39,741 nucleotides of DNA. Origin: Bdellovibrionales bacterium (GTDB taxonomy: Bacteria; Bdellovibrionota; UBA1018; CAIMNF01). The notes under the pieces were generated by a model. It did not search any database. It was given only the letters and a program-made list of their open reading frames with translations, and was not told the origin of the DNA. This document shows, piece after piece, positions 3,101 through 32,589 of the stretch. Numbering within the stretch: position 1 is the first letter of the stretch; each line of letters starts with the position of its first letter. Location: NCBI GenBank assembly GCA_040380025.1, contig JBEIJY010000023.1:1-39741 (forward strand), in the 5' to 3' direction. Position numbers and translations under genes: made by a program.

Positions 3101-4378
3101 AATGTACTCTTTATGATTTTCCCCGTTCTCAATGAGCAATGCCGCAAGGAACTCGATTTCATACAGATAGGCGTTTTCGGCGATTCTCCTCGCAACTTTC
3201 TTCAAATCCCAATCATCTGAGGGGTAGTGGGCGAGTGTGAACAGGCCATTGGTTTTCTTGGTTTCGTTCCAGAACTTGTTCCTGGAGTTCGTGAAATTCT
3301 TCGGAATCGATTGGTTGTAAAGCGTATCCATGGCTGTTTGCCGATCCGAATAAAGAGACACAAGAATGCCGTAGAGGTAGGATTGTTCAAAAAATCTCCG
3401 AGTCAGGCCCCCCGCGTCCCTTCCGTCGGCGATCGGGTTTTGTCTCACCGGGGTTAAAATCCGAGAAATGAGCGGTTGTTGGTCGGCCCCCATGGTTTTT
3501 CGATCCAGCATGATTTTGTAGGCCTGGTAGGCCTCATGTTTCGATCGAAAATCAAAAAAAGACTTGAAATGCGAGTTCGGGGTCGCCCGAAGACTGATGG
3601 TGTGTTGACCGCAGTCGAAAGGCATTGCGGGCGAGGGGGCATTTGTTTCATTTGTCAAAGCGGAGAGGTTGTAGAGCTGGCTTGCGCGTTGGTACAAGGT
3701 TTGCGCGATCACGAGCTTCGAATACAGCGATCTGACCATCTTCTTGTCTTGTCGATGGAGTTGTTTCAACGAAAGAAGCGCAAATCCTTCGAGGCTGAAC
3801 CAGTCATGAGGAGTGAGTCCCAATTCCACCCGATCAAAAACTCCTGTTCCGGGCTCCAATTCCCGATGCCAAAGGTTCGATCGAAGATCATCAGTCGAGA
3901 GGTCGAACATGATTCCATCCCCGACCTCCACCGGGACCACAAGGTTCAAATTTTCATACTTGTTTGGCAAGAACTCTGAAGGAATCACGGTTTCAATGTG
4001 CGTTGAGTGCAACGATGCGAAGTAGTTCTGATGGAGGTACTTCAGTAAATCCAAATACCGGCGGGCGACATCAATCTGGATCTCTGGCTTCTTCTTGCCA
4101 ATCTGAGTTTCGATTGTTTCTTTCAACTTTCCTAACGATGCAATGAACTCTTGGACTTCTTGCGAAGAGAAATCGTGTACTCTCAGTTCGGGCGCATTCG
4201 GATCATTCCGATCGATAAAAAGCGACTCGGCTTCTTTTTCGATTTTCTGAACCTCCGACACAAGCGGGTCCCCTTGGCTCCATACCGTCAGTCCGATCAT
4301 CATCAGCGCGAGCACGCTCGCCCCTGCCAGTAAAAAACGGAACCGGGACTTCAAGAATTGCAAAAGTAAGGGCTTCAT
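143..4378 (-). CDS. Large (1411 aa) exported or membrane-anchored hypothetical protein
   Basis: Long uninterrupted ORF with a basic N-terminus and hydrophobic segment (FLLAGASVLALMMIGLTVW). Further hydrophobic segments occur at about aa 960-1110. No family motif recognised. Confidence 0.85.
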   Translation of the reverse strand: MKPLLLQFLKSRFRFLLAGASVLALMMIGLTVWSQGDPLVSEVQKIEKEAESLFIDRNDPNAPELRVHDFSSQEVQEFIASLGKLKETIETQIGKKKPEIQIDVARRYLDLLKYLHQNYFASLHSTHIETVIPSEFLPNKYENLNLVVPVEVGDGIMFDLSTDDLRSNLWHRELEPGTGVFDRVELGLTPHDWFSLEGFALLSLKQLHRQDKKMVRSLYSKLVIAQTLYQRASQLYNLSALTNETNAPSPAMPFDCGQHTISLRATPNSHFKSFFDFRSKHEAYQAYKIMLDRKTMGADQQPLISRILTPVRQNPIADGRDAGGLTRRFFEQSYLYGILVSLYSDRQTAMDTLYNQSIPKNFTNSRNKFWNETKKTNGLFTLAHYPSDDWDLKKVARRIAENAYLYEIEFLAALLIENGENHKEYIVELSDPLSPNGSTNVWAQGRAEFVKKATGLAQTLLGTKKSGWINRMQPQIEKALQEGIPLSLRMRRETSLDALQESLQPTVEAAAKSKLILRKLYDRYQKNEDTWTKDKILLPVNYSDFQTGSTVFQVIVDQFSNNRVWPNFKTWFQNNAVDEPLRKAVYDSRNDQLAMIPYYSKSAGPNYPAQLLLMYEKKIAAFAGSPFPSELRNLALKILGDRNSRVLLVKFFEKISETFTEKRKKNKNPENVATDLPDTIREVLSTYFEDPSWDDLPAGAENPAQSRCYFMESLALLGLSDWVPTNTRILNTYSLSEEINQNEPYAIWKVTSFTGRLNYLKSVDPDANTIASRLIQTVLDHKILNEIILKTTLETESVLNLVKKEKINIDRFGNDISITLLDELIDQVNGLRFAGKGWDSELTKEKISAASRAAVAELPEQLRQGCIASLLPARNFDNEDFLREINLAGSIADTWRLNEGQKSFQTLFRLSTSSRNKTIGLDEEGEDGSEGAFFKAEKELEKATRTVKEKIREDYLEPRIHQSLYLVAILATIDLAPVASSAVKGLRFWTTTTGAVRYALATAGTVGGRQLAQKGLFNWIRNRGFSKWYMIYLDGIFVWDWINIMLTSRYDLPKELQEAALGYHLGGTEAETVREISGKLKEARTTFAISTAVNIPVFYSIYHRLATLIRHPAGDAFRTLVLHGGEPAVGMAVDMAHADLKSPLKTAAENVFDLKTPVFNPGVGEKEIVDLTARATANAFPWFKLGTEIIPQTKEILLGETRRLTSEIEALLSYGNDLDRAVTPPNAPTGINVDLVVNQLANHGKYKEILADINKLPPESWPQIWKKAYGLDLAKFQTSVSTGSARQNDLFALIVVKNEYLLLLENRLKYLSFLEQDLAGFQNEILIKQKRTLGTPDISLQSEWGAEFFTRHFNTQGCAPLFFETFQSGYSDALRRTGWPGDLGTRLPVGTYKAINEVGEAYRTLMSNLIK

Positions 4379-15774: not shown

Positions 15775-18700
15775 CTACAACGCCGTCGAGAGGTTCGACA
15801 TGATCTTCAGGATGTCCTTCCGGTCGAGCATGGGAGGTTCCTTGTCCCGAACAGAAGGCCTCTTGTCGAGCTTCCTCCAGTCCTTGAACCAGCAGAAGAT
15901 CTCCTTGATCGCGGCGACCCGTTGCCGGAAGTTGTCTCCCGGCTTGATTCCCCGGGGCGGCTCACCCTTGAAGATCAGGTAGCCGAAAATCGCCTCGACT
16001 TGTTTCGGTTTTTTGCCCGGCTCGCAGGAACCCGCAATCAGCGGGCCGCCCGCATTTTTGATTTCCATGCAAAAAATCGAAAAGCTCTTCATGATTTCCG
16101 AGAACTGCAGATAATCATCGCGGTTCACATTGAAGCGCTGGAACAGGTTCTCGGTGAAGTGGGGGACCGAGACCAGCGATTCCAGCTCTACCCGCGGAAA
16201 CGCCCCGTCTTCCTTCCAGGCGGGATAGATCGCGGTCAGCATCGATTTCCGGAAGCTGTCCATTCCGGCATCATCCCAGGTCACCATCTGCCGGATCAGC
16301 TCGGGCGCGATCTCCCCGTAGATCCTCGCAAAGAAGGCTTTCTGGAAATACACCCGCTTCAGGCACGAAACCGGAATCTCCGAGATCCGGTCGAAATCCT
16401 GCACCTCCGGAAAGCATGCCGGATAAAGAACGGCCTCGATTTCGAGCAGCGCTTTCTTCCCGCCCTGGGTGATGGTCAGGAACTCGGTCGTCTCGGTGGT
16501 ATCGATGTACTGATCCCCGTTCCCGTTTCGGGTGAAGAGATTGATGCTTCGAAGCCGCGCGAGCGCCGACTTCGATGCCGGAGCGTAGCCGTACACGAGC
16601 TTCAGCTCGGTGATGAGGTCGTTCAGATCGGTCAGGAGATCCGTCAGATCCGTCACATTCAGGCGGGCGGTGTTCGGTCCCTGCGGATCTTTCGAGACCT
16701 TGTAGAGCGGAAACAGCATCTCGACGACCTGGAAGACCATGAACTTGAACGACACATCATACAGATTGAACTGGTTCAGGACCTCTCCCGCGCGCGGGTA
16801 GCGAAGCCGGTGTTCCTTTCCGAAGAGCACCGGTTGGATGTTCCGGAGGATTTTCTGGGCCGAAGGGCTCCGGAGCCGGCCGATCAGCTCATCGCGATGG
16901 ACCTCGGTCTCGGGAGAGGGGAACGAGGCCTCCAGCGGGGCCAGCTCGTCGCGGATCCGCGCCGTCAGGGCAATGAACGGACCCAGATCGCGACCCCCGA
17001 ACCCCAACCCTTCGAGGCTTTTCGGTTTTGGGGACTTCATCCGCTTCAGCACGCGGGTGTGGAATCCCGAGAGGAACTTGTCGATCGTGGGTTCCTGCGG
17101 AAACAGCTTCACCCGGCGGAGTCCCTCGCGGATCAAGGCCTTCAGGTCGGTCAGGCGAATCTCGCCTGCGCGTGAGTCAGCAAAGGCCCGAAGACCCAAG
17201 TGCACGAGGTCGAAGGTCTTCGAGTCCACCCCCGGCTTGAAGCCCGATCCGAGCTCCTGATACCGCGGATACACATCGCGAAGGATGTTCCCTCCGAGGC
17301 GGGCGATGACCGAATAGTCCTGCCGCGAAAACGAATCCCGATTTCCACCCACCGCCACCGGCTTCACGAGCCGGATCAGATCAAGTGTGAGGCCCAGGGT
17401 CTCGGTCTGGTATTCCTTGGGCAAAAACGAGTTTACGGCGCTGATCACCTCTGCGATCGGGGCGTTCGGAATCGAGGTGTTCAAGAGAAGATCCGAGACC
17501 ATGAACATCGAGTCCGTCATGCTCTTCCCCCATCGGAGCGGTTCGAACAGCATCGCGGCATCGCGGACCTCGCGAATCGAGATTTTGGTCTCCGGGGTGC
17601 GGAAGAAGGTCGCCTTCAGTTTCATTCCGCGGTCGAGGTAGCTTCGAATCAGATTCCAGTCCATGACCGTCGCGGGAGACATCTCGCGCAGGGTCTCCTC
17701 GAGTCTGGCGAGAAGGCCCTTGATCTGCGTTACGCTCACTTCCTCGAAGCTCGGAGCCCGCACGAGGATCTCGAGCGTGTCTCCCAGTTTCTGATTCATC
17801 GGATCGGTCGACTGCGGATCCCAGGTGGCGTAGAAGTCAAAGCCCTTTCCGATGATTCCGGCCACTTGCCGGGGTCTCAGCGTCTCGCCGTCATTGCCGA
17901 CCAGAAAGGGAAGCACCTCTTTGATGAGGGGCAGGTATTTCTGGAACTGAACCTTCAGGGTCTTGTCCTGAAGCATGGGGTCGAGCTCGTCCAGGTATTG
18001 AGAGGTTCGGGTCAGGCTCAAGGTCGAAACCCGTTGGTCCCAGCCGGAGTCCGAGACCGCGGCGAGTCGGATCACTTCGATCAGATCCCGCACGAGCGGC
18101 GCGAGGACCTTCGGGGTCAGGTGATTCGGATCGAGCTTCAGGGCCTGTTCGGCGAGACGGCCTGCGGTCTTCCGGAGCTCGGCGTTTCCGAAGAATTGCC
18201 GGAGGGCGAGCGAGCCCCGCGTGCGCGGAAACAAAAGGGAATTCACGAACAAGGCCTTCGCGAAGCCATCCGAGAACTGGAGCACGATCGGGCGGGTGGT
18301 CAGTTGTTCGTTCGCAGAGAGACTCTGCAGGGTTTCGATGAGCTTTTGCACCGCGCGGGCCTGTTCCGGCTCGGTCGATTCGACTTCGATCCAGGTTTGA
18401 TCCAGAATCTCGGAGGGCTTTTGGGTGATCAGGAACGCGCCGTACAGGTTTGCAATCGAATTGAAGATGGGTTTCCATTTTGCGGCCTCGATCGCGGACT
18501 CGCTCCCCCCGACCAGAAGAAGCTTCGAATACTGCAACACGGGCAATTGCTCCCGGACGAGTGCCAGCACGGTTTCCGGGGTTTTTCCGTTCCGTCGCGA
18601 AATGAATTTCTCGAGCTCCTCCAAAAAAGTGCCGAGTTCCTTCCATTCCAAAGGGTTTCTCGAATCCGCCAGCACCTCCGGAAGTCCGCGCACAAAGACT

Positions 18701-19245
18701 CCGAGTGCGGTTCCCGCCGCGGTCCTCATCTCGAGGCTCGCATCGGCGGGTTTCATGAGGATGCGCAAATGGGGGGCGAGGGGGGCGATCAGGTCCCCAA
18801 AGCGGAGCACCCGCGACTGGAGGGATTTCAGCTCGTCTTTTGTGATGGTCCGCTCGGTTCCGCCCAGAATCGATTGCTTCAGGACAAAAATGGAGCGGAT
18901 GAACGAATCACTGATCGGATTTTCCGGCGGCAGATTCCGGTTCGCAAAGCTCTGAAGGTCCGAGGACGAATACGCATCCGGTGTTGATCCCCGGGTCATG
19001 GTCCCGAAAACCCCGAGCGCGTGGTTCACGCACGGAAAAATCTGCTGAAGCCGCGCCCCGTCCCCCGCGGAGTCCTCCAGGGTTCCGGTGAACAATGCGT
19101 TCAGGTTCTCGGGGATTTTTTGAAGACACGACAGATCGAGCTTTTCATTCTGGAATCCTTTTTGCGTTTTCGGGTCGTTCCGGATCCACCCGCACGAAGC
19201 GGCAGCCGCCAGGAGCGGCAGAAGAATCAAAACCCTAAAACGCAT
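15775..19245 (-). CDS. Large (1156 aa) hypothetical lipoprotein with two EF-hand-like loops
   Basis: MRFRVLILLPLLAAAAS-C lipobox. 12-residue loops NGNGDQYIDTTE and NVNRDDYLQFSE. Overlaps the upstream gene by 11 nt. Confidence 0.85.
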   Translation of the reverse strand: MRFRVLILLPLLAAAASCGWIRNDPKTQKGFQNEKLDLSCLQKIPENLNALFTGTLEDSAGDGARLQQIFPCVNHALGVFGTMTRGSTPDAYSSSDLQSFANRNLPPENPISDSFIRSIFVLKQSILGGTERTITKDELKSLQSRVLRFGDLIAPLAPHLRILMKPADASLEMRTAAGTALGVFVRGLPEVLADSRNPLEWKELGTFLEELEKFISRRNGKTPETVLALVREQLPVLQYSKLLLVGGSESAIEAAKWKPIFNSIANLYGAFLITQKPSEILDQTWIEVESTEPEQARAVQKLIETLQSLSANEQLTTRPIVLQFSDGFAKALFVNSLLFPRTRGSLALRQFFGNAELRKTAGRLAEQALKLDPNHLTPKVLAPLVRDLIEVIRLAAVSDSGWDQRVSTLSLTRTSQYLDELDPMLQDKTLKVQFQKYLPLIKEVLPFLVGNDGETLRPRQVAGIIGKGFDFYATWDPQSTDPMNQKLGDTLEILVRAPSFEEVSVTQIKGLLARLEETLREMSPATVMDWNLIRSYLDRGMKLKATFFRTPETKISIREVRDAAMLFEPLRWGKSMTDSMFMVSDLLLNTSIPNAPIAEVISAVNSFLPKEYQTETLGLTLDLIRLVKPVAVGGNRDSFSRQDYSVIARLGGNILRDVYPRYQELGSGFKPGVDSKTFDLVHLGLRAFADSRAGEIRLTDLKALIREGLRRVKLFPQEPTIDKFLSGFHTRVLKRMKSPKPKSLEGLGFGGRDLGPFIALTARIRDELAPLEASFPSPETEVHRDELIGRLRSPSAQKILRNIQPVLFGKEHRLRYPRAGEVLNQFNLYDVSFKFMVFQVVEMLFPLYKVSKDPQGPNTARLNVTDLTDLLTDLNDLITELKLVYGYAPASKSALARLRSINLFTRNGNGDQYIDTTETTEFLTITQGGKKALLEIEAVLYPACFPEVQDFDRISEIPVSCLKRVYFQKAFFARIYGEIAPELIRQMVTWDDAGMDSFRKSMLTAIYPAWKEDGAFPRVELESLVSVPHFTENLFQRFNVNRDDYLQFSEIMKSFSIFCMEIKNAGGPLIAGSCEPGKKPKQVEAIFGYLIFKGEPPRGIKPGDNFRQRVAAIKEIFCWFKDWRKLDKRPSVRDKEPPMLDRKDILKIMSNLSTAL

Positions 19246-20674
19246 AGTTCACCCCCAAACGAATCCGACCCAAGGATCTCACATCGGCCAGGAACTCAGC
19301 CCCCCGGTCGGGCGAAACATCGAGGTAACTCGAAAGAACATCGCCCCCGATGTAGATTCCGAGATCCGGCGTGAACCGGTAGGACGCATCGCCCGAGAAC
19401 CAATCCCCTCGGATCGAATATTCATGGATGTACTTGAACGAGATCGCCGGATCATGCACGTTCCCGGGCAAGAATCGATGCTTCAAGGCGATCTGTGTGG
19501 CCATCCGGTAAAACAAATGGGAGCTGAACAGGCTTCCTTGCGAAGAGGCGACCCGGCCGACATCGGCATCCAGTCCTCCTTGCACCCAGATCTGGCTCAG
19601 GGTCACCGAAGAACTCATGTTCTTGAATTCAATCCAAGGCATCCAGGTGCTCGAGAGGGTGAGCGGAGTTGCGGTCAGATTCGACGGAATCGGATCGCCC
19701 ACGGGTTGGTCGATGAGCCCCGCGAAGCCAAACTCGAGGCCGTTCTCCAGGCGGTAGCGAAGCTCCCCGTTAAAGAGATGATGATGAAAGAGAAGCGGTT
19801 GCAACACCACCGGCACTTCGTTGTTCGCAAGGTAGTACTCGGCATCGAAGCCGATCGGAAAATAATTCAAGGGCAGATAGCCGTACGAGAATTTGGCCCC
19901 GTAGGGGAGTTCCGGCTTGGTCTCGGCCGAGAAGGCGAAGCTCGGCCGGAAGAGAATCTTCGTGATGGACGGAATCTCGAGCTGATACCGAAGCGGCACG
20001 GTGCCATTCAAAAGGGGCATGGATTCCGGGGCCGAGTTGATTCCCTGCGGATGCACCGGCACCACGCGGTTGTCCTCGATCACGACGTTCGGCCCGATCT
20101 CGGGAATGAAAAGCGCGGAGGCGAACATCTTGAAGTCAAAGTACCCGCTTCGCATCGAAGCGAAAATCCCGGTGAGCCCCTGCATGGACGGACGAAGCCG
20201 GTCCCACTGGTCCAGTTGTTCGAATTGCCCGAGATTCCAGATCGAGTCCACTTTGGTCCAGCCCATCAGGCGGCGCCCGAACGAGAACCGGATCTGATTC
20301 TCCCTTTTTCCGTCCTTCTGGCCCCAATACAGATTTTTCGAGGTGAGCGCGAAGGCCTTCGGCTGTGCCGCACTCATGCGGAGCTTCACATCACCCGCGT
20401 ATTCGAACTCCGATGCGGGCGCGGCAACGGCGGCAGTTTTGGATTTCGGGTTCTTTTTGAGGACGGGAGAGGCAAACTCGAGTCCCGCGCTCACAATCGG
20501 GAACACCTGCGGGTGGACCACCGGTCGGTACCCCTGGCCCTCGAAGCCGAGCTCAAAACGCATCGGGGCGGCCACCGATGCTTCGGTTCCGAGCGTCAGA
20601 AGAAAAAGAAGGAATAGGAAAAAACGCGGACCTACCCCTCGAGTAAGAAACAGTACCCCCATCCGAATCCCCAT
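19235..20674 (-). CDS. Hypothetical outer-membrane beta-barrel protein
   Basis: Signal-like segment (RFFLFLLFLLTLGTEASVA), alternating amphipathic strands and C-terminal beta-signal RIRLGVNYAF. Start is ATG 20674 or 20662; the track's TTG at 20713 is less likely. Confidence 0.8.
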   Translation of the reverse strand: MGIRMGVLFLTRGVGPRFFLFLLFLLTLGTEASVAAPMRFELGFEGQGYRPVVHPQVFPIVSAGLEFASPVLKKNPKSKTAAVAAPASEFEYAGDVKLRMSAAQPKAFALTSKNLYWGQKDGKRENQIRFSFGRRLMGWTKVDSIWNLGQFEQLDQWDRLRPSMQGLTGIFASMRSGYFDFKMFASALFIPEIGPNVVIEDNRVVPVHPQGINSAPESMPLLNGTVPLRYQLEIPSITKILFRPSFAFSAETKPELPYGAKFSYGYLPLNYFPIGFDAEYYLANNEVPVVLQPLLFHHHLFNGELRYRLENGLEFGFAGLIDQPVGDPIPSNLTATPLTLSSTWMPWIEFKNMSSSVTLSQIWVQGGLDADVGRVASSQGSLFSSHLFYRMATQIALKHRFLPGNVHDPAISFKYIHEYSIRGDWFSGDASYRFTPDLGIYIGGDVLSSYLDVSPDRGAEFLADVRSLGRIRLGVNYAF

Positions 20675-23356: not shown

Positions 23357-25000
23357 GTGGGGGTGTTGAACGGAATCCGCTCCAAGATCTTTGCTTTTCT
23401 TTCGTGCCTGCTCTTGGTGAGCATCGGTGGTGTGGGGATCAGCTTCTGGTTCACCCAGCGCGTGAACGCCCGGTTGTCCGAGGTGAATCTCCGTTCCGTT
23501 CCCCTGCAAAAAGAATTGACCCGCCTGTATTCCGACACCGGGCTCCTGCAACGGGAACTCGAGCAAAGTCTGGGCTTCCGTCATTGGAACGATCCCCGTT
23601 GGAAGCCGAAGCGGATTCCGGTCTGGGCCATCGAAGTTCATCGCTCCACCCTCGAACGAATCAAGCCCGAAGATCTGACGAGCGCGCCCTGGAAGGCCTG
23701 GTATGCGCGGGTGCTCAAGCTCAATCAAGATCTCGCCTCGGGTGCGGAATCGCTGTTCCTGGAACTTCAGGCCTCGCACATCGATCAGGCGGCTCTCTTG
23801 TATCCCGACTGGATTCGCCGGCTCGAGACGCTTCAAAAGGAGGTCGAGTGGGCGCGCCGGGAAATCGACCAAGAAACCCGGAACGCCTTCCGCGATGCGC
23901 AGGACCGCGTTCAGGATCTGCGATTCGCGCTCCAGGTTTTGCTTCTCGTAGTGGTCGGAGTGGCGCTCCTCGTGATCTGGATGGGCGAGCGCGCCCTGCG
24001 ACCGATCGGATCCCTGCGGGCCGTGGTCAAGCAGGTCAACGAACGGGGCTCGATCACCCGCGACGTGCGCGCGGGAATCCCCTCCGCCCCGATCGGCCAA
24101 AAGGACGAGGTGAGCGAGCTTGCCCGGGAGTTCCACCAAATGGCGACCACCCTGATCGAACGCGAAAAAATGATCGAGCACCAGAAGGCGCGGCTCGAAG
24201 AGCAGAACAAGGCGCTGATGCAGATGGGCGAGTTGCAAAAGCGGCTCCAGCAAGCCGAGCATCTGGCCGCGGTGGGGCGTCTCTCGGCGCAAGTTGCCCA
24301 CGAGGTCGGAAACCCTCTTCATTCCATCGGTCTCGAGTCGGAGCTCGCTCTCGAAGTCTTGGACAGGATGTCGCCCGGAAAGTCATCGTCGGCGCTCTCG
24401 ATCAAGCAGTCCCTGGGTTCGATCCAGGTGAGCGTCGAACGCCTGAAGAAGATCATTCAAAACTACCTGAAGCTCTCGCGCATCTCGCCGGGCGGGAACG
24501 AGGCGGTCGACCTGAAGGTCGCAGTTGAAAACGCGATTGCCACCTATGCGAACGAACTCCAGAAGGCCTCCGTCCAGATGGACTGGTATTTCGATCCCGG
24601 CCTTCGGTCGGCGGGTGTGGTGGTCGGAGATCCCGATCTGATCGAGTATGCCGTCGGAAATCTCATCCGAAATTCGATACAGGCCATGGAAGGGGCGGAC
24701 TCGAAAGAACGGAGGATCCTGATCCGTCTTGAGGCCGGAACGAATCGGGCCCGCATCCGGTTCGAGGATTCCGGTCCCGGAATCGCCGAGGAAATTCGTA
24801 AAAATCTCTTCAAGCCTTTCTTCACAACGAAAGCGAACGGAACCGGCATCGGCCTCTCCTTCGTCAAGAAAGTATTCACCGACGCGGGAGGGGATTTTTC
24901 CCTGCGCGCGGGTGGCACGGGAACCGGTGCGGAATTCGAGGGGTACTTTCCGCTCGTTCCGGCGGCAGTCAAAGAAACCCGCAGGGAGGCGAACGTATGA
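23357..25000 (+). CDS. Membrane sensor histidine kinase (2 TM, HAMP, HisKA, HATPase), NtrY/PilS-like
   Basis: Two TM segments, HAMP (DEVSELAREFHQM), H-box AHEVGNPL, N-box NLIRNS, DSGPG, FKPFFTTK and GTGIGL. Confidence 0.93.
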   Translation: MGVLNGIRSKIFAFLSCLLLVSIGGVGISFWFTQRVNARLSEVNLRSVPLQKELTRLYSDTGLLQRELEQSLGFRHWNDPRWKPKRIPVWAIEVHRSTLERIKPEDLTSAPWKAWYARVLKLNQDLASGAESLFLELQASHIDQAALLYPDWIRRLETLQKEVEWARREIDQETRNAFRDAQDRVQDLRFALQVLLLVVVGVALLVIWMGERALRPIGSLRAVVKQVNERGSITRDVRAGIPSAPIGQKDEVSELAREFHQMATTLIEREKMIEHQKARLEEQNKALMQMGELQKRLQQAEHLAAVGRLSAQVAHEVGNPLHSIGLESELALEVLDRMSPGKSSSALSIKQSLGSIQVSVERLKKIIQNYLKLSRISPGGNEAVDLKVAVENAIATYANELQKASVQMDWYFDPGLRSAGVVVGDPDLIEYAVGNLIRNSIQAMEGADSKERRILIRLEAGTNRARIRFEDSGPGIAEEIRKNLFKPFFTTKANGTGIGLSFVKKVFTDAGGDFSLRAGGTGTGAEFEGYFPLVPAAVKETRREANV

Positions 25001-26331
25001 GTTCGAGGATTCTTCTGGTCGATGATGATCCCGAGTCGTTGCAGTCCACGGCGAGGATTCTTCGTTTTTCAGGGCACGAGGTGACGGAGGCCGCATCCGG
25101 CGCGGAGGCCCTCGGGCAAATCCAGGCTCTCCGTCCCGATCTGGTGGTGACCGATGTCCGGATGCCGGGGATGAGCGGTCTTGAGTTCATCGAAGCATAC
25201 CGGAAGTCCGGACAAGACATCCCGTTCATCGTCATGACGGCTTTCGGCGAGGTGAAGGATGCCGTTTGGGCCATGAAAATGGGAGCCGTGGAATTTTTGC
25301 TGAAGCCTTTCAATCGGCAGGCGCTCTTGGATGCGCTGGACTCTGTGATGGTGCGGATTCAAAAACCGGTGAATCCGGATGTCTCCCCGGAGTCCGGCCG
25401 GATCGGCTCTTCGCGGGTCATGAAGGAACTCGGCGTGCTGATCGAACAGGTCGCAAGAACCGATGCTTCGGTGCTGGTGCTGGGGGAGAGCGGAAGCGGC
25501 AAGGAGCAGGTGGCGCGCTGGATCCATGAAAAAAGCGCGGTTTCAAACGGACCGTTCGTGGCGGTCAACTGTGCCGCGATTCCCGAGAACCTGATCGAGA
25601 GCGAACTCTTCGGCTTCGAGCGGGGCGCGTTCTCGGGGGCGAGCCAGAGCAAAGCCGGATTGATCGAAGCCGCAAACGGAGGGACCCTTCTGCTCGATGA
25701 GATCGGCGACATGCCCCTTTCGCTTCAGCCGAGGCTGCTGCGATTCCTTGAGGAGCAGACGATCCGGAGACTCGGTTCCACGGTCGAAAAAAAGGTCTCC
25801 GTGCGGGTGATTGCGGCAACCCATCGGAATCTCCCGCAGTGGGTCCGGGATCAGCGCTTCCGTCAGGATCTGTATTATCGTCTGGATGTGATGAGCCTGC
25901 GGGTTCCCGCACTTCGGGAGCGGATGGAGGACGTGCCCGAACTCGCCCTGCATTTCGTGAACCGATTCTCGCGCTCCTACGGAAAAACCCGGATCGGCAT
26001 CGATCCCGCCGCGATCGCGCTCCTGCTCGATCACGATTGGCCCGGGAACGTGCGGGAGCTGTCGAACGTGCTCGAGCGTGCCGTCGTTCTGAACCGGTCT
26101 GGAACGATCGGAGTCGCTGACCTTCCTCCCCATCTGCGATGCGCGGTCACCGCTCCGGAGAGCGGCGAAACCATCACGATTCCGATCGGCATGAGTTTGC
26201 GCGAGGTCGAAGATCTCATGATCAAAAAAGCACTGCAGGCTTCGCAAGGCGACCGCGCCGGGGCCGCCCGGCTTCTGGGTGTGAATGAGCGGACGATTTA
26301 TCGCCGGATCAGCAAGACCAAAGAAGACTGA
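24997..26331 (+). CDS. NtrC-family sigma54-dependent response regulator
   Basis: Receiver (LLVDDD, TDVRMP, MTAFG, KP), AAA+ (GESGSGKE, ESELFG, GAFSGA, LLLDE, WPGNVREL) and Fis HTH. ATGA overlap with the kinase. Confidence 0.95.
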   Translation: MSSRILLVDDDPESLQSTARILRFSGHEVTEAASGAEALGQIQALRPDLVVTDVRMPGMSGLEFIEAYRKSGQDIPFIVMTAFGEVKDAVWAMKMGAVEFLLKPFNRQALLDALDSVMVRIQKPVNPDVSPESGRIGSSRVMKELGVLIEQVARTDASVLVLGESGSGKEQVARWIHEKSAVSNGPFVAVNCAAIPENLIESELFGFERGAFSGASQSKAGLIEAANGGTLLLDEIGDMPLSLQPRLLRFLEEQTIRRLGSTVEKKVSVRVIAATHRNLPQWVRDQRFRQDLYYRLDVMSLRVPALRERMEDVPELALHFVNRFSRSYGKTRIGIDPAAIALLLDHDWPGNVRELSNVLERAVVLNRSGTIGVADLPPHLRCAVTAPESGETITIPIGMSLREVEDLMIKKALQASQGDRAGAARLLGVNERTIYRRISKTKED

Positions 26332-27019
26332 ACCGCACGCATGCGGTTCCGGCGAGTTCTGTTTTCGCGGCACTCATGCGGACCGCCCGGCTCAGCGAGT
26401 AGAAACATCCGCGAATGAAATGTTCGTGCAGATCAAGCAGCAATCCGATTCCTTCCGAAGACTGCAGCGCGGGATTCCGCAGCGGAGATTTTTTCCAGAT
26501 CAGCGCGACCTCGCGGTCCGACTCCCGCTCCGGCAGGAAGGCACGCTCGCCGTAAAGCTGGCTTTCCAGAAAGGCACGGGAGGCATCGCGCAGGGGCAGA
26601 TCCCCCGATCCTCCCCAGATCGCATCCATGAAGGATCTGCCATGGTTCCAGCTCGCTTGCTGGAGCACATTCGCGGTCTCGGCCGGATTCTCCGTGCGCG
26701 AGATCACATTCTCCGCCGTGGAGCCCTGGATGATCCAGACGGTCTCCTCCAGCTCCTCCAAAAAATCCCCGATCCGCTGGGAGCCGACCAGATCCTCGAG
26801 GTTCAGGGGAAGCTCGTCGATTCTCGCCTTCTCGAATTGCCAGAGATTCTGATTCAGCGTCACGCGGGTCATGCGTTCCATCCGGTGGGCCGGCTCGGTT
26901 TTCGAGAGGATGCTGCCGGTCCACGCATCCGTGAGCGAGTGCAGGGCGATCAGGCGGCGGAACCGGCGTTCCTCCTCCAATGAGGCCTTTCGCTCATGCC
27001 AGCATCCCGCTTTCCTCAT
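26309..27019 (-). CDS. Hypothetical protein, V4R/H-NOX-like fold suspected
   Basis: ATGA overlap with the upstream 897-aa gene. The C-terminal pattern 'KSPL...LDLHEHFIRGCFYSL...AGTACVRFSLLW' resembles V4R-type domains. Confidence 0.7.
   Translation of the reverse strand: MRKAGCWHERKASLEEERRFRRLIALHSLTDAWTGSILSKTEPAHRMERMTRVTLNQNLWQFEKARIDELPLNLEDLVGSQRIGDFLEELEETVWIIQGSTAENVISRTENPAETANVLQQASWNHGRSFMDAIWGGSGDLPLRDASRAFLESQLYGERAFLPERESDREVALIWKKSPLRNPALQSSEGIGLLLDLHEHFIRGCFYSLSRAVRMSAAKTELAGTACVRFSLLWSC
26330..26349. terminator. Hairpin at the convergent gene junction (possible terminator)
   Basis: GAACCGCA-cgca-TGCGGTTC, a perfect 8-bp stem directly after the regulator stop. No clear U-tract. 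Confidence 0.3.
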
Positions 27020-29709
27020 TGGAGAAGCCCGATTTTATCGGCGCTTTCCTTGCGGGGGGCGAGGCACACGCTGATCAGATGATTCAGTTCCCGGCGACGG
27101 AGCTTTTCGGACGAATAGGCTTTCAGGATCTGCCCCGCCATCACCTGCGCCTGATCCGGATTCCGCGGAAGAACGATTCTTTGAGTGATCTCGGCCCAGG
27201 TGGGTTCGGGAATCTCGCGCCGCAGGTTCTCGATCATTTCAAAACAACGGTCCCGGAGCCATTGATCCTGGATGTAAAGCGTCTGGGTCAGGCCCTTGGC
27301 TGTTCCCAGCAGGATTCCCGAGACCGGCGTCTTGAGCGAGGTGACCACCTGAATGGCCTGATGGGGCGTCAGTGTCGGATTGTACCGGATCAGCGGATGC
27401 TGATGGACTCCGGTCAGATCTTTTTCGGTCATCACCGACCGGAAGAAATCCGAATAGCGGATCTGCTCGTCCGGAGAGATGAGCGAGAAGAGCGTATTCT
27501 GGTGCTCTTCGAGCTGGACCAGCGTCTGCGAGGCGTGCACGAAGGCATGGCCCTTCAGATGGGGCAGGCTCTCGATGGCCTTCAGTGCCGAATCCGGCTC
27601 CGTTGAAATCATTCCGAGGATCTGCTCCTCATGAGGCGGGAGCACCATCTCGTTTCGGGCCAGTTTTCCGAGCACCTCTCCGAGGTGTTTCGGTACGGGG
27701 ACCTGTTTCAGATCGGATTCCTTGATCAGCCAGGCGCCCTTCTTCCGCTCCACCGAATAGTCGAACCAGTCGCGCGCGAGCGAGGACCGGATCAGGGTCT
27801 GGAGGGGCTGATTCCACTCGGGCTTCAGGGGCGCGATGTAAAACAAGGCGTGATTGTTGCGAAGATACCCGGGAAGACGATCTTCCGGTGCGGTGAAGAT
27901 CTCGTTGCCGTTCTTGCTGTGCTCGACCCACAGGTAAAAGCCAGTGTCCGCGCGCATGTTCGATTCCGGAAAGAGGTGGGGTTCCCGCTTGTCGAAAGAG
28001 AACTGCAGGGACGGATTGAAGGTGCGGATGGTCGCGAATTGGCCGAGCGGAGCCGAGTTCCGCTTCAGGTCCTCGATCTGATCGACCATCTCGTTGTCTT
28101 TCGGATTGAACCAGTGTTGTTCCCATTCCCGCTGGTCCACCGGACTCACCCGGGCGTGGAGCTGGAACGGCTCTGCCGGAAACGCCTGGTCCGGCCGGTG
28201 GATCAGGCCGAACGCGCGGTCGAAAAGGGTCTCCAGATCGCGTTCCCCTTCGAGGGATCCGTAGGCCTTCAGCAAGAGCGGCCGGTGGCTCTTCCGCTCC
28301 TCGAGCCGGTTTTCCCGGCGCAGAACGTAGATCACCTTGGGGAGATCCCGCTCCAGTTCCGGTGTCTTGCAATGCAGGGCCGAAAAATCCGCGATCATCA
28401 AAATTTTCGCATGATCGAGCAAAAAGTGGAGAGCGGGTTTTCCGGCTTCCTCCGAGAGCACTTCCTCCCGGGCCCACACGAGGATCCCGTCCTGGCGGAG
28501 CTTGTCGAGGGTCTGGCAGGCCTGATAAATCCCGCGGGTCGTGTTCGGTTGCTTGATTTTTTTCAGAATCGAGTGCTGGTCGACGGTGCGCTTGAGGGCC
28601 TGTGAGGCGAGTCCCTTGCCCGTCGCCCGGATGGAGCTTTCTTCCGAGATGATCGCCACTTCGGCGCAGGAGATCGCATCCATTTGCTTCAGGATGTTCA
28701 GTTTCCCCGAATGGGTGAGGAGCAGGGAGCCTTGTTGCTCCATGCTCATCTCGAGGCCTGAGCCTTTTGCCCAGAGAGGCGGATTTTTCGGTTCTTTCCA
28801 GAAATGCCGGACTTCGCCGAACAAGAGCTCGAACGAAAGCGACTCGAATCCCACCCATTGGATGGACGGGGGAGCGTGCTCGAAGAGGGAGCCATCCCGC
28901 AGCGTCGGACTGAAACCGATCCGCTGTTCGCCACGGAACGAAAGGAGCCGGTGCTTCTCGAGGGACTTCCACAGATTCCGGTAGAATCCTTCGCCGTAAC
29001 GCTGTCTCTCGCCCAGGGTTTCCGCCGAGAGGATCCGTGCTCGGTGCAGGAGCCAGTCTTTCAGGCAATCCGGATCGGCCACCGACTCCAGGATGATCCA
29101 GAGGAAACTCTGCGTTTCCGGGGTGAGCTTGTACCACGAGTAAAAATTCTGCTGGATCAACTGGCAGGTGGAGGTCTGGAGATTCACATAAGATCTCAAA
29201 TCCCGCTCCACGGACGCTGTCAGATCCTTCAGGTCCGCGCGTTCGAGCCGCGCACCCGCGCGTTTTCTCCACGAGAGGAGCAATGCCGCCTTTGCGATTT
29301 GCGCGAGAGCGATCTGCCGGAAGAGCTGTTTCAGGGCTTTCTGCTCCGCCTCGCTCCGGTCCGGTCGCACGAAATGCCGGAGCGCCAGCTGCGGGTCGAG
29401 CGGCTCCGGTGTTTGCGAGAGCTCTGTGAGGAACCGGCCCATTCCCTCCCTCCGGGAGGAGTTCAGCTTCAAGAGGTCATCCGGTTTTTTGAGCTGATCG
29501 GCGACCATGGCGTTCATCAAGGCCTCGAGCTGCTCAAAAAAGGGAGAGGGTGGGGAGGGGGGCGCTTCTTTCGGCTGGAGAAGTTCCTGCACCGAGGATC
29601 GGGGAGGGGAGTCGCTTTTTGCGGTGTCTTCGATCGTCTTCTCCAGGCGGTCTTTCTTGATCCACCCGGAAATATCAATCGATTCAGAATCAAAAAGCGA
29701 AGAAGACAT
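27016..29709 (-). CDS. 897-aa protein resembling an inactive TaqI/Eco57I-like N6-adenine methyltransferase + TRD scaffold
   Basis: Ordered gamma-class MTase-like segments with degenerate motif I (SPTLRDGSLF) and motif IV (AIISEESS), plus a TaqI_C-like segment LIRSSLARDWF...IKESDLKQVPVP. Confidence 0.75.
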   Translation of the reverse strand: MSSSLFDSESIDISGWIKKDRLEKTIEDTAKSDSPPRSSVQELLQPKEAPPSPPSPFFEQLEALMNAMVADQLKKPDDLLKLNSSRREGMGRFLTELSQTPEPLDPQLALRHFVRPDRSEAEQKALKQLFRQIALAQIAKAALLLSWRKRAGARLERADLKDLTASVERDLRSYVNLQTSTCQLIQQNFYSWYKLTPETQSFLWIILESVADPDCLKDWLLHRARILSAETLGERQRYGEGFYRNLWKSLEKHRLLSFRGEQRIGFSPTLRDGSLFEHAPPSIQWVGFESLSFELLFGEVRHFWKEPKNPPLWAKGSGLEMSMEQQGSLLLTHSGKLNILKQMDAISCAEVAIISEESSIRATGKGLASQALKRTVDQHSILKKIKQPNTTRGIYQACQTLDKLRQDGILVWAREEVLSEEAGKPALHFLLDHAKILMIADFSALHCKTPELERDLPKVIYVLRRENRLEERKSHRPLLLKAYGSLEGERDLETLFDRAFGLIHRPDQAFPAEPFQLHARVSPVDQREWEQHWFNPKDNEMVDQIEDLKRNSAPLGQFATIRTFNPSLQFSFDKREPHLFPESNMRADTGFYLWVEHSKNGNEIFTAPEDRLPGYLRNNHALFYIAPLKPEWNQPLQTLIRSSLARDWFDYSVERKKGAWLIKESDLKQVPVPKHLGEVLGKLARNEMVLPPHEEQILGMISTEPDSALKAIESLPHLKGHAFVHASQTLVQLEEHQNTLFSLISPDEQIRYSDFFRSVMTEKDLTGVHQHPLIRYNPTLTPHQAIQVVTSLKTPVSGILLGTAKGLTQTLYIQDQWLRDRCFEMIENLRREIPEPTWAEITQRIVLPRNPDQAQVMAGQILKAYSSEKLRRRELNHLISVCLAPRKESADKIGLLQ

Positions 29710-29870
29710 AAGATTAGTATTTTCCCCCGTTCATCCCGTCAGTCCCCGAATTCGAACCGTATCGGAGAGATATATCAACAGGATCGAGCTCTCGTCCAGA
29801 ACCGAGCGTTAAAAATAAAACTCCATGGTTTCAATGGATTACCGAATTTTGATTCCAGTACGATCTTCCC

Positions 29871-29898
29871 TCAAGAACAAGAGCGCTTTCGCCGATCA
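29871..29898 (+). promoter_or_regulatory. Putative sigma28 (FliA) promoter
   Basis: TCAAG-15 nt-GCCGATCA versus the consensus (TAAA/TCAAG)-N15-GCCGATAA. Confidence 0.6.
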
Positions 29899-29908
29899 GG
29901 GGAGTGAG

Positions 29909-30328
29909 ATGTCGCAATCGCTCAATCGAATCCGTAGCTTGATTTCCGAAATCGATCAGATCCAGAAGCAGGGGCAGAAGTCCCATCGGTCTCCGGGCGG
30001 AATGGATGCACTGGTCTTTGCCGAGCAACGGTCTCTTGCGGCCGCTCCGGTGCCGGTTCCGGCACCGGCAGCCCAAGTGGCCGCGCCAGGAGTTGCGCCA
30101 GTGGCAGCCCCGATCCCGGCGCCCGTATCTGAAGCAAAGGCTCCCGAGCCTGCGCCTGTTTCCGCTCCCGAAAGTCGCGTCAAGGTGGAGTGGAGCGGAA
30201 CCGTCATTCTGGAACTTCAGCTCTCCGAGGCAGACGAAAAAGTCGAACTCCGCCAGCGGAACGGTCAGATCGAGATTTCCTTCTCGGACGGAAAAGCGTT
30301 TCACATCCCTTTTAAAGCCGTGGCATAG
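29909..30328 (+). CDS. Small hypothetical protein with Ala/Pro-rich linker
   Basis: ATG 29909 follows GGGGAG and the sigma28 motif. N-terminal helix, APVPVPAPAA-type linker and small beta-rich C-terminal domain. Confidence 0.75.
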   Translation: MSQSLNRIRSLISEIDQIQKQGQKSHRSPGGMDALVFAEQRSLAAAPVPVPAPAAQVAAPGVAPVAAPIPAPVSEAKAPEPAPVSAPESRVKVEWSGTVILELQLSEADEKVELRQRNGQIEISFSDGKAFHIPFKAVA

Positions 30329-30335
30329 TGAGGGC

Positions 30336-30908
30336 GTGCTCAAGATCACTTCAGGGATCCATCGGGGTCGCCTCATCAAAACCTTGCCGGGAATCGCCAC
30401 CCGGCCCACAACCGAGCGACTGCGCCAGTCTTGGTTGAACAGTCTCCAAATGCGGCTTCCCGAGTCCCGGGTCCTCGACCTTTTTTCGGGCTCCGGCGCA
30501 CTGGGACTGGAGGCTCTTTCCCGCGGAGCGGATTCCGTGGTGTTTGTCGAAGAAAACCCCAAAGCCGTCCGTTTGATTCTCGAAAATGCGAAGACTCTCG
30601 GATTGCAAGAACGGGTTCGAGTTCTCCAGAAGCGGGTCGATCAGGTGTTGCCGTTCCTCCGGGATGAGCCGCCCTTCGATTTTGTGTTTGCCGATCCGCC
30701 GTATGAGGCCGGACATGAAGAAGCGCTCCTCGGGGACTGGCCGTGGGAGGAAATCCTCGCCGAATCGGGCACTCTCTGCATCGAGAGCGCATTCCGCAAA
30801 GAAGGCGCATTTGCGGCGCCGGCCCCTTTGCGGGTGGTCCGGCATGAGCGCTACGGAGACAGTCAGCTCACATTTTATCGCCACAATGAAAGGACGGCCA
30901 TGCCATGA
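30336..30908 (+). CDS. rsmD: 16S rRNA (guanine(966)-N2)-methyltransferase
   Basis: LKITSG...RGR, TRPTTERLR, VLDLFSGSGALGLEALSRGA, DPPY and RYGDS. Start refined to GTG 30336. Canonical rsmD-coaD pair. Confidence 0.95.
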   Translation: MLKITSGIHRGRLIKTLPGIATRPTTERLRQSWLNSLQMRLPESRVLDLFSGSGALGLEALSRGADSVVFVEENPKAVRLILENAKTLGLQERVRVLQKRVDQVLPFLRDEPPFDFVFADPPYEAGHEEALLGDWPWEEILAESGTLCIESAFRKEGAFAAPAPLRVVRHERYGDSQLTFYRHNERTAMP

Positions 30909-31387
30909 AAGCACTTTATCCCGGATCCTTTGATCCCTTCACGAACGGCCACCTCGACATCCTGGAGCGAAGTCTGCGGATTTTCTCCGAGATCACGATC
31001 CTCGTCGCCGGCACCTCGCGCAAGGTGACGCTTCTCTCGGCCGACGAGCGGGTCGGGCTCATCCGCGAGGTCACGAAAGGAATGAAGAACGTGAAGGTAG
31101 ACTCCACTCCGGGACTGATCATGGAGTACGCGCGGACCCACTCCATCGCTTCTGTGATCCGCGGACTCCGCACTCCGAGCGATTTCGAATACGAATACAT
31201 GATGGCGACCATGAACAAGCGGATCCATCCGTGGTGCGAAACGGTTTTCATGATGAGCTCGCAGGGACTTTATTTTGTGAGTTCCACCATGATCAAGGAG
31301 CTTTACTATTACGGGGGCGACATCTCTCCGTACGTGCCCTCGCCCGTGCTCCATAAGTTCCACGAGAAATTCTCAAACCCGAAATGA
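30905..31387 (+). CDS. coaD: Phosphopantetheine adenylyltransferase
   Basis: YPGSFDPFTNGHLDI, IRGLR...DFEYE and VSSTMIKE. Confidence 0.97.
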   Translation: MKALYPGSFDPFTNGHLDILERSLRIFSEITILVAGTSRKVTLLSADERVGLIREVTKGMKNVKVDSTPGLIMEYARTHSIASVIRGLRTPSDFEYEYMMATMNKRIHPWCETVFMMSSQGLYFVSSTMIKELYYYGGDISPYVPSPVLHKFHEKFSNPK

Positions 31388-32589
31388 CAGGAAAAACCCC
31401 GATGATCTCGAGCCGAGTCCGAAAACTGAATGAAAGCTCCACTCTGAAGGTGAACGCGCGCGTGACCCGGATGAAGCAGGAGGGAAAGACAGTCTTCAAT
31501 CTCACGGCGGGAGAGCCGGATTTTCCTCCCCCCGACCAGGCCAAACAAGCTGTGCTCGATGCCGTGGCCCGGAACCTCTCCAAGTACACGCCCACCGCGG
31601 GCATACCGGAGCTCCGCGAGCTGGTGGCGGCGCGAACCAATCTGCAGCAACCCGCTCTTTCGGCGTCGAGCCCGTGGACGGCGTCGGAGGTGGTGGTCTC
31701 GAACGGCGGAAAACAAGCCATTTTCAACACTGTTTTTTCGCTGATCGATGCCGGCGAGGAGGTCATTTTCGGGGCGCCGTACTGGCTCAGCTACCCCGAG
31801 ATGGTGAAGGCCGCCGGGGGATCGAGCGTGGTCATTCCCACCTCGATGCAATCCGGCTACCGGATGAGCCCCGATCAGCTCGAAGCGGCGATCACTCCGC
31901 GAACCAAGCTTCTCATTCTGAATTCGCCCTCGAATCCGACCGGTGCGGTTTATTCCCGGGACGAGCTCCGGGCATTGGGAGCGGTTCTCGGGCGGCACCC
32001 GAAGGTCTGGATTCTCAGTGACGAAATCTACGACCGGATCGAGTTCGAGACCGGATCCTGGTGCTCGTTTCTGGATGCGAATCCGGAGTTCCGGAACCGC
32101 ACGGTGACCGTGAACGGACTTTCCAAGAGCGGTGCGATGACCGGGTGGCGGGTCGGGTGGTCGGTCGCTCCCAGTTCTTTGACATCGGCAATCCTTGCCT
32201 TGCAGGGGCACTCCACTTCGGGAATTTGCAGTCTCTCGCAGGCCGCCGCGGTGGCAAGTCTCAAAATTCCGCCGGAAGCGTTTGAAAACCAACGCCTTGA
32301 ATATCGACGGCGCCGTGATTTGGCATTGGAAGTCCTCCGGAAATCAGAGAAAATCGAGGTAGGGGAGCCCGGAGGGGCATTCTACCTTTTTGTGGAATGC
32401 CGACGGATTCTCGGTTCCCACCGGGATGCAAATGGACTTGCTGAACAAATTCTCGAGGACGCGCAGGTCGCGGTCGTTTCCGGAGTCGACTTCGGAGCAC
32501 CTTCCTGCATCCGGATCAGCTTCGCGACCGATCCGGCAACCCTGGTCGAAGGGTGCGAGCGCTTGCTTCGTTTCTTTCATTCTCGTTAG
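31384..32589 (+). CDS. PLP-dependent aminotransferase class I/II (aspartate aminotransferase-like)
   Basis: GEPDF, KYT, GGKQA, PYWLSY, NSPSNPTG, SDEIY, SKSGAMTGWRVG (PLP Lys), GAFY and IRISFA. Confidence 0.95.
   Translation: MTGKTPMISSRVRKLNESSTLKVNARVTRMKQEGKTVFNLTAGEPDFPPPDQAKQAVLDAVARNLSKYTPTAGIPELRELVAARTNLQQPALSASSPWTASEVVVSNGGKQAIFNTVFSLIDAGEEVIFGAPYWLSYPEMVKAAGGSSVVIPTSMQSGYRMSPDQLEAAITPRTKLLILNSPSNPTGAVYSRDELRALGAVLGRHPKVWILSDEIYDRIEFETGSWCSFLDANPEFRNRTVTVNGLSKSGAMTGWRVGWSVAPSSLTSAILALQGHSTSGICSLSQAAAVASLKIPPEAFENQRLEYRRRRDLALEVLRKSEKIEVGEPGGAFYLFVECRRILGSHRDANGLAEQILEDAQVAVVSGVDFGAPSCIRISFATDPATLVEGCERLLRFFHSR

Follow-up and report, generated by a model that had tools for sequence, protein, structure and literature searches.

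Restriction-modification systems are usually mobile and short-lived. The orphan or solitary DNA adenine methyltransferases CamA, Dam and CcrM show vertical conservation across whole lineages, and to our knowledge these domesticated restriction-modification derivatives all stay active. In eukaryotes, the pseudo-methyltransferases METTL14 and DNMT3L retain a dead methyltransferase fold under selection and assist an active paralogue. The closest described relatives of the protein considered here are the type IIG enzymes (BpuSI, DrdV and the Eco57I family), single-chain proteins in which a helical connector, a gamma-class N6-adenine methyltransferase fold, a TaqI_C-type recognition domain and a C-terminal helix follow one another; the accessible text on BpuSI agrees with this domain order and with the position of the catalytic NPPY (PMC3185434). 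Here we describe a window (the whole stretch of DNA analysed, 39,741 nucleotides of contig JBEIJY010000023.1, assembly GCA_040380025.1, from a Bdellovibrionales bacterium) that encodes an 897-residue protein with these parts in the same order (the large gene) followed by a 236-residue protein (the small gene). The large protein is an exapted derivative which, by the defining tests, lies outside the active type IIG and N6-methyltransferase families. We are highly confident of its origin, the loss of its catalytic parts, its fixation and the selection acting on it.

Both reading frames are intact, and the end of the large gene overlaps the start of the small gene as ATGA at 27016-27019. The GC content, overall and at third codon positions (GC3), is 0.59/0.76 for the large gene and 0.61/0.75 for the small gene, in agreement with a genome GC of 0.58 and with GC3 values of 0.66-0.81 across the five housekeeping neighbours used for comparison. 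Both frames and their host-like composition had been described in an earlier reading of the DNA letters (hereafter the sequence-only reading), which also quoted protein segments, GFSPTLRDGSLF among them, that are present in the translation at the places given. Its proposal of a gamma-class N6-methyltransferase scaffold of the type IIG group is borne out by the comparisons that follow. An AlphaFold model of the large protein was built from 50 homologues (predicted local distance difference test, pLDDT, 81.8; predicted template modelling score 0.59). Its best Foldseek matches were 7eew, DrdV, M.BseCI, BpuSI and CamA, with E values from 7e-11 to 4e-8 overall and up to 2e-9 for the first four, and in the VIA structure comparison 19 DNA methyltransferases scored Z 19.9-13.2 before a fall to 11.2. 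Most of these matches are confined to residues 53-543, which leaves the C-terminal domain less well tested. Protein language-model features gave Eco57I/N6_Mtase clusters for all of the matches listed (n=10, 0.92-0.94). Sequence and profile searches of the solved structures gave nothing meaningful, and the large protein matched no family in Pfam, PADLOC or NCBIfam. A profile search collected 174 representatives, including an intact type IIG enzyme of 1,220 residues, P0203, and the family profile stripped of intact members aligned to P0203 by hhalign with probability 100 and an E value of 8e-54 over 802 columns. P0203 belongs to an unnamed subfamily of intact type IIG enzymes of about 1,200 residues (P0203, L129-L205), the nearest active relatives of the large protein.

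The large protein differs from these enzymes in having neither the nuclease domain nor NPPY, in having mostly lost motif I, and in the deletion of about 100 residues of the recognition domain. The replacement of motifs I and IV and the missing nuclease, noted in the sequence-only reading, were all confirmed against P0203: SPTLRDG aligns to its motif I DPATGSG, SEES occupies the place of NPPY, and about 190 residues of its nuclease part are unmatched, with the alignment beginning at P0203 residue 218 and the large protein holding only some 53 low-confidence residues ahead of its helical domain. A motif census covered 292 non-redundant members that are not intact and have 780 residues or more. 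It gave [NDS]PP[YFW] anywhere in two, both outside the motif IV column (hence 0/292 at the column), as against 61 of 64 P0203 relatives from a metagenome scan; of the remaining three, one is a fragment and two belong to the dead family. A motif I-like string is retained in 7/292 members and lost in 285. Decay at motif IV is graded across related lineages, from NPPY through CPPE to SEES; the least-diverged members carry DPTMGSG and CPPE and still pass the Pfam Eco57I model, whereas other clades show HFPD, DHP, CFP, EE or LNLTELP in the motif IV region. The recognition domain has shrunk in parallel lines of evidence: the span between anchors W533 and W648 is 93-127 residues in 30/30 dead members (116 in the window protein) against 213-215 in two intact enzymes, and the TaqI_C match of the least-diverged members covers positions 38-118 or less, below the Pfam cut-off. 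The terminal loop of this domain is net positive in 100 of 123 representatives. Among 50 close homologues R271, E356, E357 and R361 are invariant; across clades no catalytic residue is common to all, and for the columns that do stay invariant (S191, W192, G408, P848) a structural role is the best reading.

The segment KNPPLW was considered as a relocated or displaced catalytic motif and rejected. Its placement in the catalytic loop by alignment had been raised as an objection to a dead enzyme, and both alignment and model put it elsewhere: it lies about 45 residues before the motif IV position, ahead of motif III and on the previous strand of the model, and its N is retained in just 10/50 close homologues.

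The large gene behaves as a core gene in part of the phylum. With the widest profile, 220 of 401 sampled genomes of the phylum gave a match, 213 of them strong: 100/102 in the window's class, 100/100 in the Bacteriovoracaceae (f22) and 13/14 in families f19, f20, f24 and f26 together. The gene is essentially single-copy in the window's class and in the Bacteriovoracaceae. Of the seven weak matches, the four inspected are intact enzymes with NPPY. In the same sample it was found in 0/53 genomes of f21 and as weak matches only in f15, f16, f18, f23 and f25, and 0/9 coaD neighbourhoods from families without it held a member. Its locus is fixed, for the most part next to rsmD-coaD-aspC: coaD lies upstream in 14/14 close loci that have upstream DNA, and a divergent rsmD lies upstream in 19/20 and 11/13 distant loci of two sets. 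Among 80 metagenome loci related to P0203, rsmD/coaD adjoin only the two that belong to the dead family, whereas the intact-type relatives sit there in 0/78 cases. In nine pairs of close relatives, none including the window's own gene, the ratio of nonsynonymous to synonymous substitution (dN/dS) of the large gene was 0.026-0.046 in eight and saturated in one, beside 0.012-0.050 for coaD and 0.020-0.065 for the small gene. A FastTree tree of 55 loci required nine changes of GTDB family label, with a minimum of eight and a shuffled mean of 30, and vertical descent was judged on these labels only; distances for the large gene correlate with those for AspC+CoaD (rho 0.77 over 23 loci) and the two trees hold 10 supported splits in common. 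No relatives were confirmed among 52 candidates on viral contigs, with search patterns drawn from close homologues only. The domestication among housekeeping genes suggested by the sequence-only reading, and the dN/dS below 1 that it looked for, thus fit the distribution, locus, tree and constraint found here, and a decaying pseudogene was rejected on the near-universal distribution and a dN/dS of about 0.03.

For the present role of the large protein we propose the following. A type IIG restriction-methyltransferase became fixed beside rsmD-coaD-aspC in an ancestor of several Bdellovibrionota lineages, and lost its nuclease domain, its catalytic NPPY and the middle of its specificity domain, with motif I going later in most lineages. 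Vertical inheritance followed, under purifying selection as strong as that on coaD. Sequence, model and tree show all of this apart from the order of losses, which we infer. The remaining body (helical domain, methyltransferase fold and cut-down recognition domain) may grip DNA with little or no sequence specificity, while a Q-x-S-L-[LF]/QLSLxL loop could bind the beta sliding clamp and so bring the protein to newly replicated DNA. There it would act as a non-catalytic scaffold in chromosome upkeep, be it replication-coupled repair, fork protection or chromosome organisation. The V4R-fold protein, a class-restricted neighbour, may modulate it through a small ligand, which is the weakest step. 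We give non-specific DNA binding, clamp docking and a part in chromosome upkeep a probability of about 0.42. A bolder statement, which we offer tentatively, is that the fully domesticated enzyme could be a near-indispensable, non-catalytic replisome factor: in the Bacteriovoracaceae and neighbouring classes a DNA scaffold tethered to the clamp, and in one class tuned by a V4R ligand sensor, with intermediates surviving and intact ancestors that were perhaps already clamp users.

The clamp consensus is given in the accessible text of PMC11139829 as Q-phi-x-[LM]-[FL] or Q-phi-x-[LM]-x-[FL]. Counted in an 81-residue segment of 123 representatives clustered at 50% identity, with shuffles as the expectation, this strict pattern occurs in 47/123 against 8.2 expected. 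The loop after motif III reads QMSIF or QISLF in Bacteriovoracaceae, QLSLxL in the window's order, QLEF or QLDM in the f19/f20-type and QxSLL in the window's genus. In the close homologues Q326 is invariant (50/50), and residues 329-337 are of low confidence in the model. The host MutS carries QLSLF and the host DnaE carries QSSLF, equally non-canonical to the window's motif and, judging from its position, probably the internal clamp motif. A complex prediction with the organism's own DnaN and residues 231-545 scored 0.00, which is no answer and counts neither way. Some members (P0181, P0174, P0069, P0096, P0199) show a second clamp-like string (QLSLDL, QLEFGF, QLDLS) in a disordered N-terminal tail. 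A regulatory role would be compatible with docking on the clamp, since a clamp-dependent transcription activator exists according to the accessible part of 10.1101/2025.01.04.631326.

The small protein bears on a different explanation, in which the large protein reads DNA in a sequence- or modification-specific way and regulates transcription or the cell cycle, with a ligand-binding V4R-fold partner as its switch. The small-protein model (pLDDT 83.8) matched TRAPP (Z 9.0, root-mean-square deviation 3.9, 144 aligned), PoxR (7.8) and DmpR (7.7) by VIA, and Foldseek returned the same set (TRAPP/Bet3, BcsD, PoxR, DmpR, H-NOX) at E values of 2e-3 to 2e-2. The best 18 VIA matches (Z 9.0-6.6) are almost all what we take, from their titles, to be the V4R/H-NOX/TRAPP-Bet3/BcsD superfamily. 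The matches are consistent and individually modest, and a shared alpha/beta fold is predicted. Pfam, PADLOC and NCBIfam gave no match, with only a sub-threshold Alpha-E in Pfam. The small gene is present in 88/102 genomes of the window's class, and outside the class there is one weak, partial match in f22. Of its 88 occurrences, 51 are directly downstream of the large gene, 19 are farther along that strand, seven are on the other strand and 11 are on another contig; it is within 10 kb in 77/77 same-contig cases, and the ATGA overlap recurs in 7/14 close loci. This linkage, together with the strong constraint on the methyltransferase fold, which has the lowest dN/dS of the four domains in most relative pairs (0.012-0.030), speaks for a reader, as does CPH in 13/27 small-protein homologues, reminiscent of the cysteines that bind zinc in the V4R domain of DmpR (the ligands being C151, E172, C177 and C185 in the accessible text of PMC7264223). 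The window copy has SP at this place. A shorter form of 192 residues, without about 45 residues after the first helix, occurs in L011 and L015 (L012 and L013 are truncated).

We nevertheless consider a reader unlikely. Sequence reading through the TaqI_C domain, as suggested in the sequence-only reading, is in doubt, since 30/30 aligned members have lost about 100 residues of it. For five Pfam families, the organism's own genome (98% complete) gave no DNA methyltransferase above cut-off, with one sub-threshold Eco57I match in a 296-residue frame, and SeqA was not found; these absences weaken the reading of own methylation and a role in assisting an active paralogue. Furthermore, the large gene occurs in 113 genomes outside the class, none of which gave a credible match to the small gene, and the small gene also adjoins an NtrC/kinase pair. 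The linkage is old but loose and class-limited. An obligate two-gene system was rejected on the same 113 carriers. The sequence-only reading was right about a V4R-like fold with SP in place of CP, and its pairing holds within the class and is not obligatory; its worry that homologues might be decaying and unlinked is answered in part, as they are not decaying and are linked in the class alone. Likewise, its pseudo-methyltransferase retained for a non-catalytic role agrees with a dead scaffold under strong purifying selection, while methylation reading and defence sensing find little support in a core gene of a genome with no DNA methyltransferase above cut-off.

Several points weigh against the clamp-docking scaffold that we favour. 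The large gene was not found in large parts of the phylum and so is not a phylum-wide need, 3/16 supported AspC+CoaD splits conflict with the large-gene tree, and the dN/dS pairs leave out the window's own gene. The large protein is neutral in overall charge (isoelectric point 7.2), and DNA binding is not evident from its charge. Looser clamp patterns, found in 98/123 representatives against 28.6 expected, were picked post hoc after viewing the alignment. With group assignment approximate, the strict pattern occurs in 0/6 of the window's own family and in just 5/27 of a mixed group, and several f13/f14-type members retain only xxLF. Intact relatives also show a weaker form (in a 70-residue segment, loose 17/61 against 5.3 expected, strict 1/61), so the clamp-like loop may be an inherited feature with a structural role. 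Many P0203/L129-L205 members have EQLxL or QxLF in the equivalent loop. A rather improbable alternative is a non-catalytic scaffold that acts independently of the clamp, through a protein or RNA partner, with the Q-motif being just an inherited loop; it would suit the neutral charge, the non-canonical motif of the window's family, the absence of a cross-clade catalytic residue and the structural character of the invariant columns. Against it, the strict motif reaches 19/35 in the Bacteriovoracaceae-type and 23/55 in the f3-type (again by approximate assignment) and is thus sharper in the dead family than in intact relatives, and pentamer and hexamer forms alternate at one site, like those of known clamp binders in the accessible text of PMC11139829. 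The motif looks inherited and then sharpened in the dead family.

It seems to us quite improbable that the large protein is a decoy or guard that senses the anti-restriction proteins of phages (Ocr/ArdA) while the small protein serves as effector. Defence genes are patchy in distribution, unlike the large gene, which is near-universal and single-copy at a fixed housekeeping locus with a dN/dS of about 0.03; neither of the two proteins was matched in PADLOC, 113 carriers of the large gene did not yield the partner, and the fold of the small protein is none of those known from toxins. What commends this idea is a nuclease-less restriction-modification scaffold with a small gene tightly behind it, a best structural match (7eew) that is an Ocr-bound methyltransferase, and the precedent of Ronin, which needs no methyltransferase activity according to the accessible part of 10.1101/2023.04.06.535777. 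Ronin shows that nuclease-less scaffolds of this origin can be decoys, but the core-gene behaviour of the large gene fits poorly. It is very improbable that the protein remains enzymatically active with a changed chemistry or substrate, whether or not dependent on SAM (S-adenosylmethionine), for although 7/292 members keep a motif I-like sequence (e.g. DPTMGSG then CPPE) and R271, E356, E357 and R361 are invariant in close homologues, these residues are not retained in other clades and motif I is lost in 285/292.

The features of the locus are collected in Table 1. A promoter scan was at chance level. Both the window's family and the distant f13 type retain the C-terminal GLLQ (GLLQ/GILQ/GFLQ) of the large protein, which persists even where the next gene starts more than 140 nt away and is possibly a partner or protease signal. 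The 167-residue hypothetical upstream of rsmD has a short N-terminal helix, a low-complexity middle and a conserved C-terminal part of about 50 residues; it is present in close loci, similar-looking proteins stand at the equivalent place in f22 loci, and Pfam and NCBIfam gave no convincing family match. Many distant lineages (L053-L056, L062, L069, L071, L072, L074, L076) have, shortly after the large gene or the pair, a hypothetical of 516-569 residues with a GDxH motif that resembles ChaN/TIKI-type proteins; two members had no NCBIfam match. Elsewhere in the window a 1,411-residue frame with no Pfam match lies in a lower-GC stretch (GC 0.50, GC3 0.59) that was possibly acquired, and paralogues of two divergent hypotheticals (1,156 and 397 residues) occur together on contig C21.

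Table 1. Positions of the large and small genes, their domains and motifs, and other features of the window.
Feature	Positions	Strand	Basis
Large gene, 897 residues; nuclease-less, catalytically degenerate type IIG restriction-modification-derived protein	27016..29709	-	ORF (open reading frame), AlphaFold model, profile alignment
Helical connector domain, ~residues 54-230, with LNxxRR and NxYSWY segments common to P0203	29020..29550	-	boundaries from model
Methyltransferase-fold domain, ~residues 231-545	28075..29019	-	structural matches, dN/dS
Degenerate motif I, GFSPTLRDGSLF, residues 265-276, replacing DPATGSG	28882..28917	-	profile alignment
KNPPLW, residues 308-313, outside catalytic loop; N poorly conserved	28771..28788	-	model, alignment
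QGSLLL, residues 326-331, beta-clamp-binding-like motif opening a low-confidence loop; non-canonical at position 2	28717..28734	-	alignment, model
Motif IV position, SEES (S355-E356-E357-S358) replacing NPPY	28636..28647	-	profile alignment to P0203
Shrunken target-recognition domain, ~residues 546-675; C-terminal part and basic ERKKG loop retained, ~100 residues gone	27685..28074	-	alignment
C-terminal domain and long helix, ~residues 690-885, found in intact P0203 too	27055..27642	-	model, alignment
C-terminal GLLQ	27019-27033	-	
Small gene, 236 residues; V4R/H-NOX/Bet3/BcsD-like fold	26309..27019	-	ORF, model, structural matches
Histidine kinase and NtrC-family sigma-54 activator, convergent, often adjoining the small gene within the class	23357..26331	+	gene order
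Conserved divergent neighbours: 167-residue hypothetical, rsmD-like, coaD, aspC-like	29825..32589	+	gene order in window and relatives
167-residue hypothetical	29825-30328	+	
1,411-residue ORF	143-4378	-	
1,156-residue hypothetical	15775-19245	-	
397-residue hypothetical	19424-20617	+	

The family is real and apparently undescribed. Searches of open-access literature listings turned up no account of this family, nor of restriction-modification enzymes with a clamp motif, comparative-genomics supplements with possible core-hypothetical listings being outside their scope. The records of the closest named loci are titled as metagenome-assembled genomes (MAGs) of Bdellovibrionales, Oligoflexia, Bdellovibrio or Proteobacteria, with two loci from one Nitrosovibrio-titled bin. 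Homologues of an f22 protein in cultured predators (Bacteriovorax stolpii C8D79_2148, Halobacteriovorax sp. JY17, HLS and GB3), like those in Bacteriovoracaceae MAGs, are all labelled hypothetical; the family escapes annotation, and its presence in cultured predators makes it directly testable there. A dead restriction-modification derivative is kept across several classes under coaD-like constraint, with intermediate stages in living lineages, and its clamp-type motif prompts the question whether certain type IIG enzymes that are still intact may travel with the clamp as well.

Comparison with known systems places the pair apart from each of them. Orphan DNA adenine methyltransferases, of which CamA and M.BseCI are structural matches, likewise have a restriction-modification-derived fold and no nuclease, but they are active enzymes, whereas the large protein lacks the catalytic motif together with the greater part of its specificity domain. 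METTL14 and DNMT3L resemble it in keeping a dead methyltransferase fold; they differ in that its own genome has no active DNA methyltransferase above cut-off. The small protein shares its predicted fold with the V4R/H-NOX/TRAPP-Bet3/BcsD superfamily by both VIA and Foldseek, and departs from it in its modest scores, its lack of a Pfam match and of the CPH cysteine in the window copy, and in standing alone instead of forming part of an activator fusion. Proteins that use a loop motif to reach the beta clamp (DnaE, MutL and Hda in the accessible text of PMC11139829) share Q-x-x-L-[LF] or Q-L-x-L-x-L in a flexible loop; the large protein is a putative clamp partner, and QGSLL of the window fails at phi, with Gly where an aliphatic residue is preferred. 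Ronin, as described in the accessible part of 10.1101/2023.04.06.535777, is similar in joining a nuclease-less restriction-modification scaffold, whose methyltransferase activity is dispensable, to a linked small gene. It is built on a type I HsdMS whose NPPF is intact, with a 61-residue membrane effector, and is linked to BREX or other restriction-modification loci, whereas the pair in the window consists of a single type IIG-derived chain, a core gene at a housekeeping locus, and a soluble 236-residue neighbour with a V4R fold.

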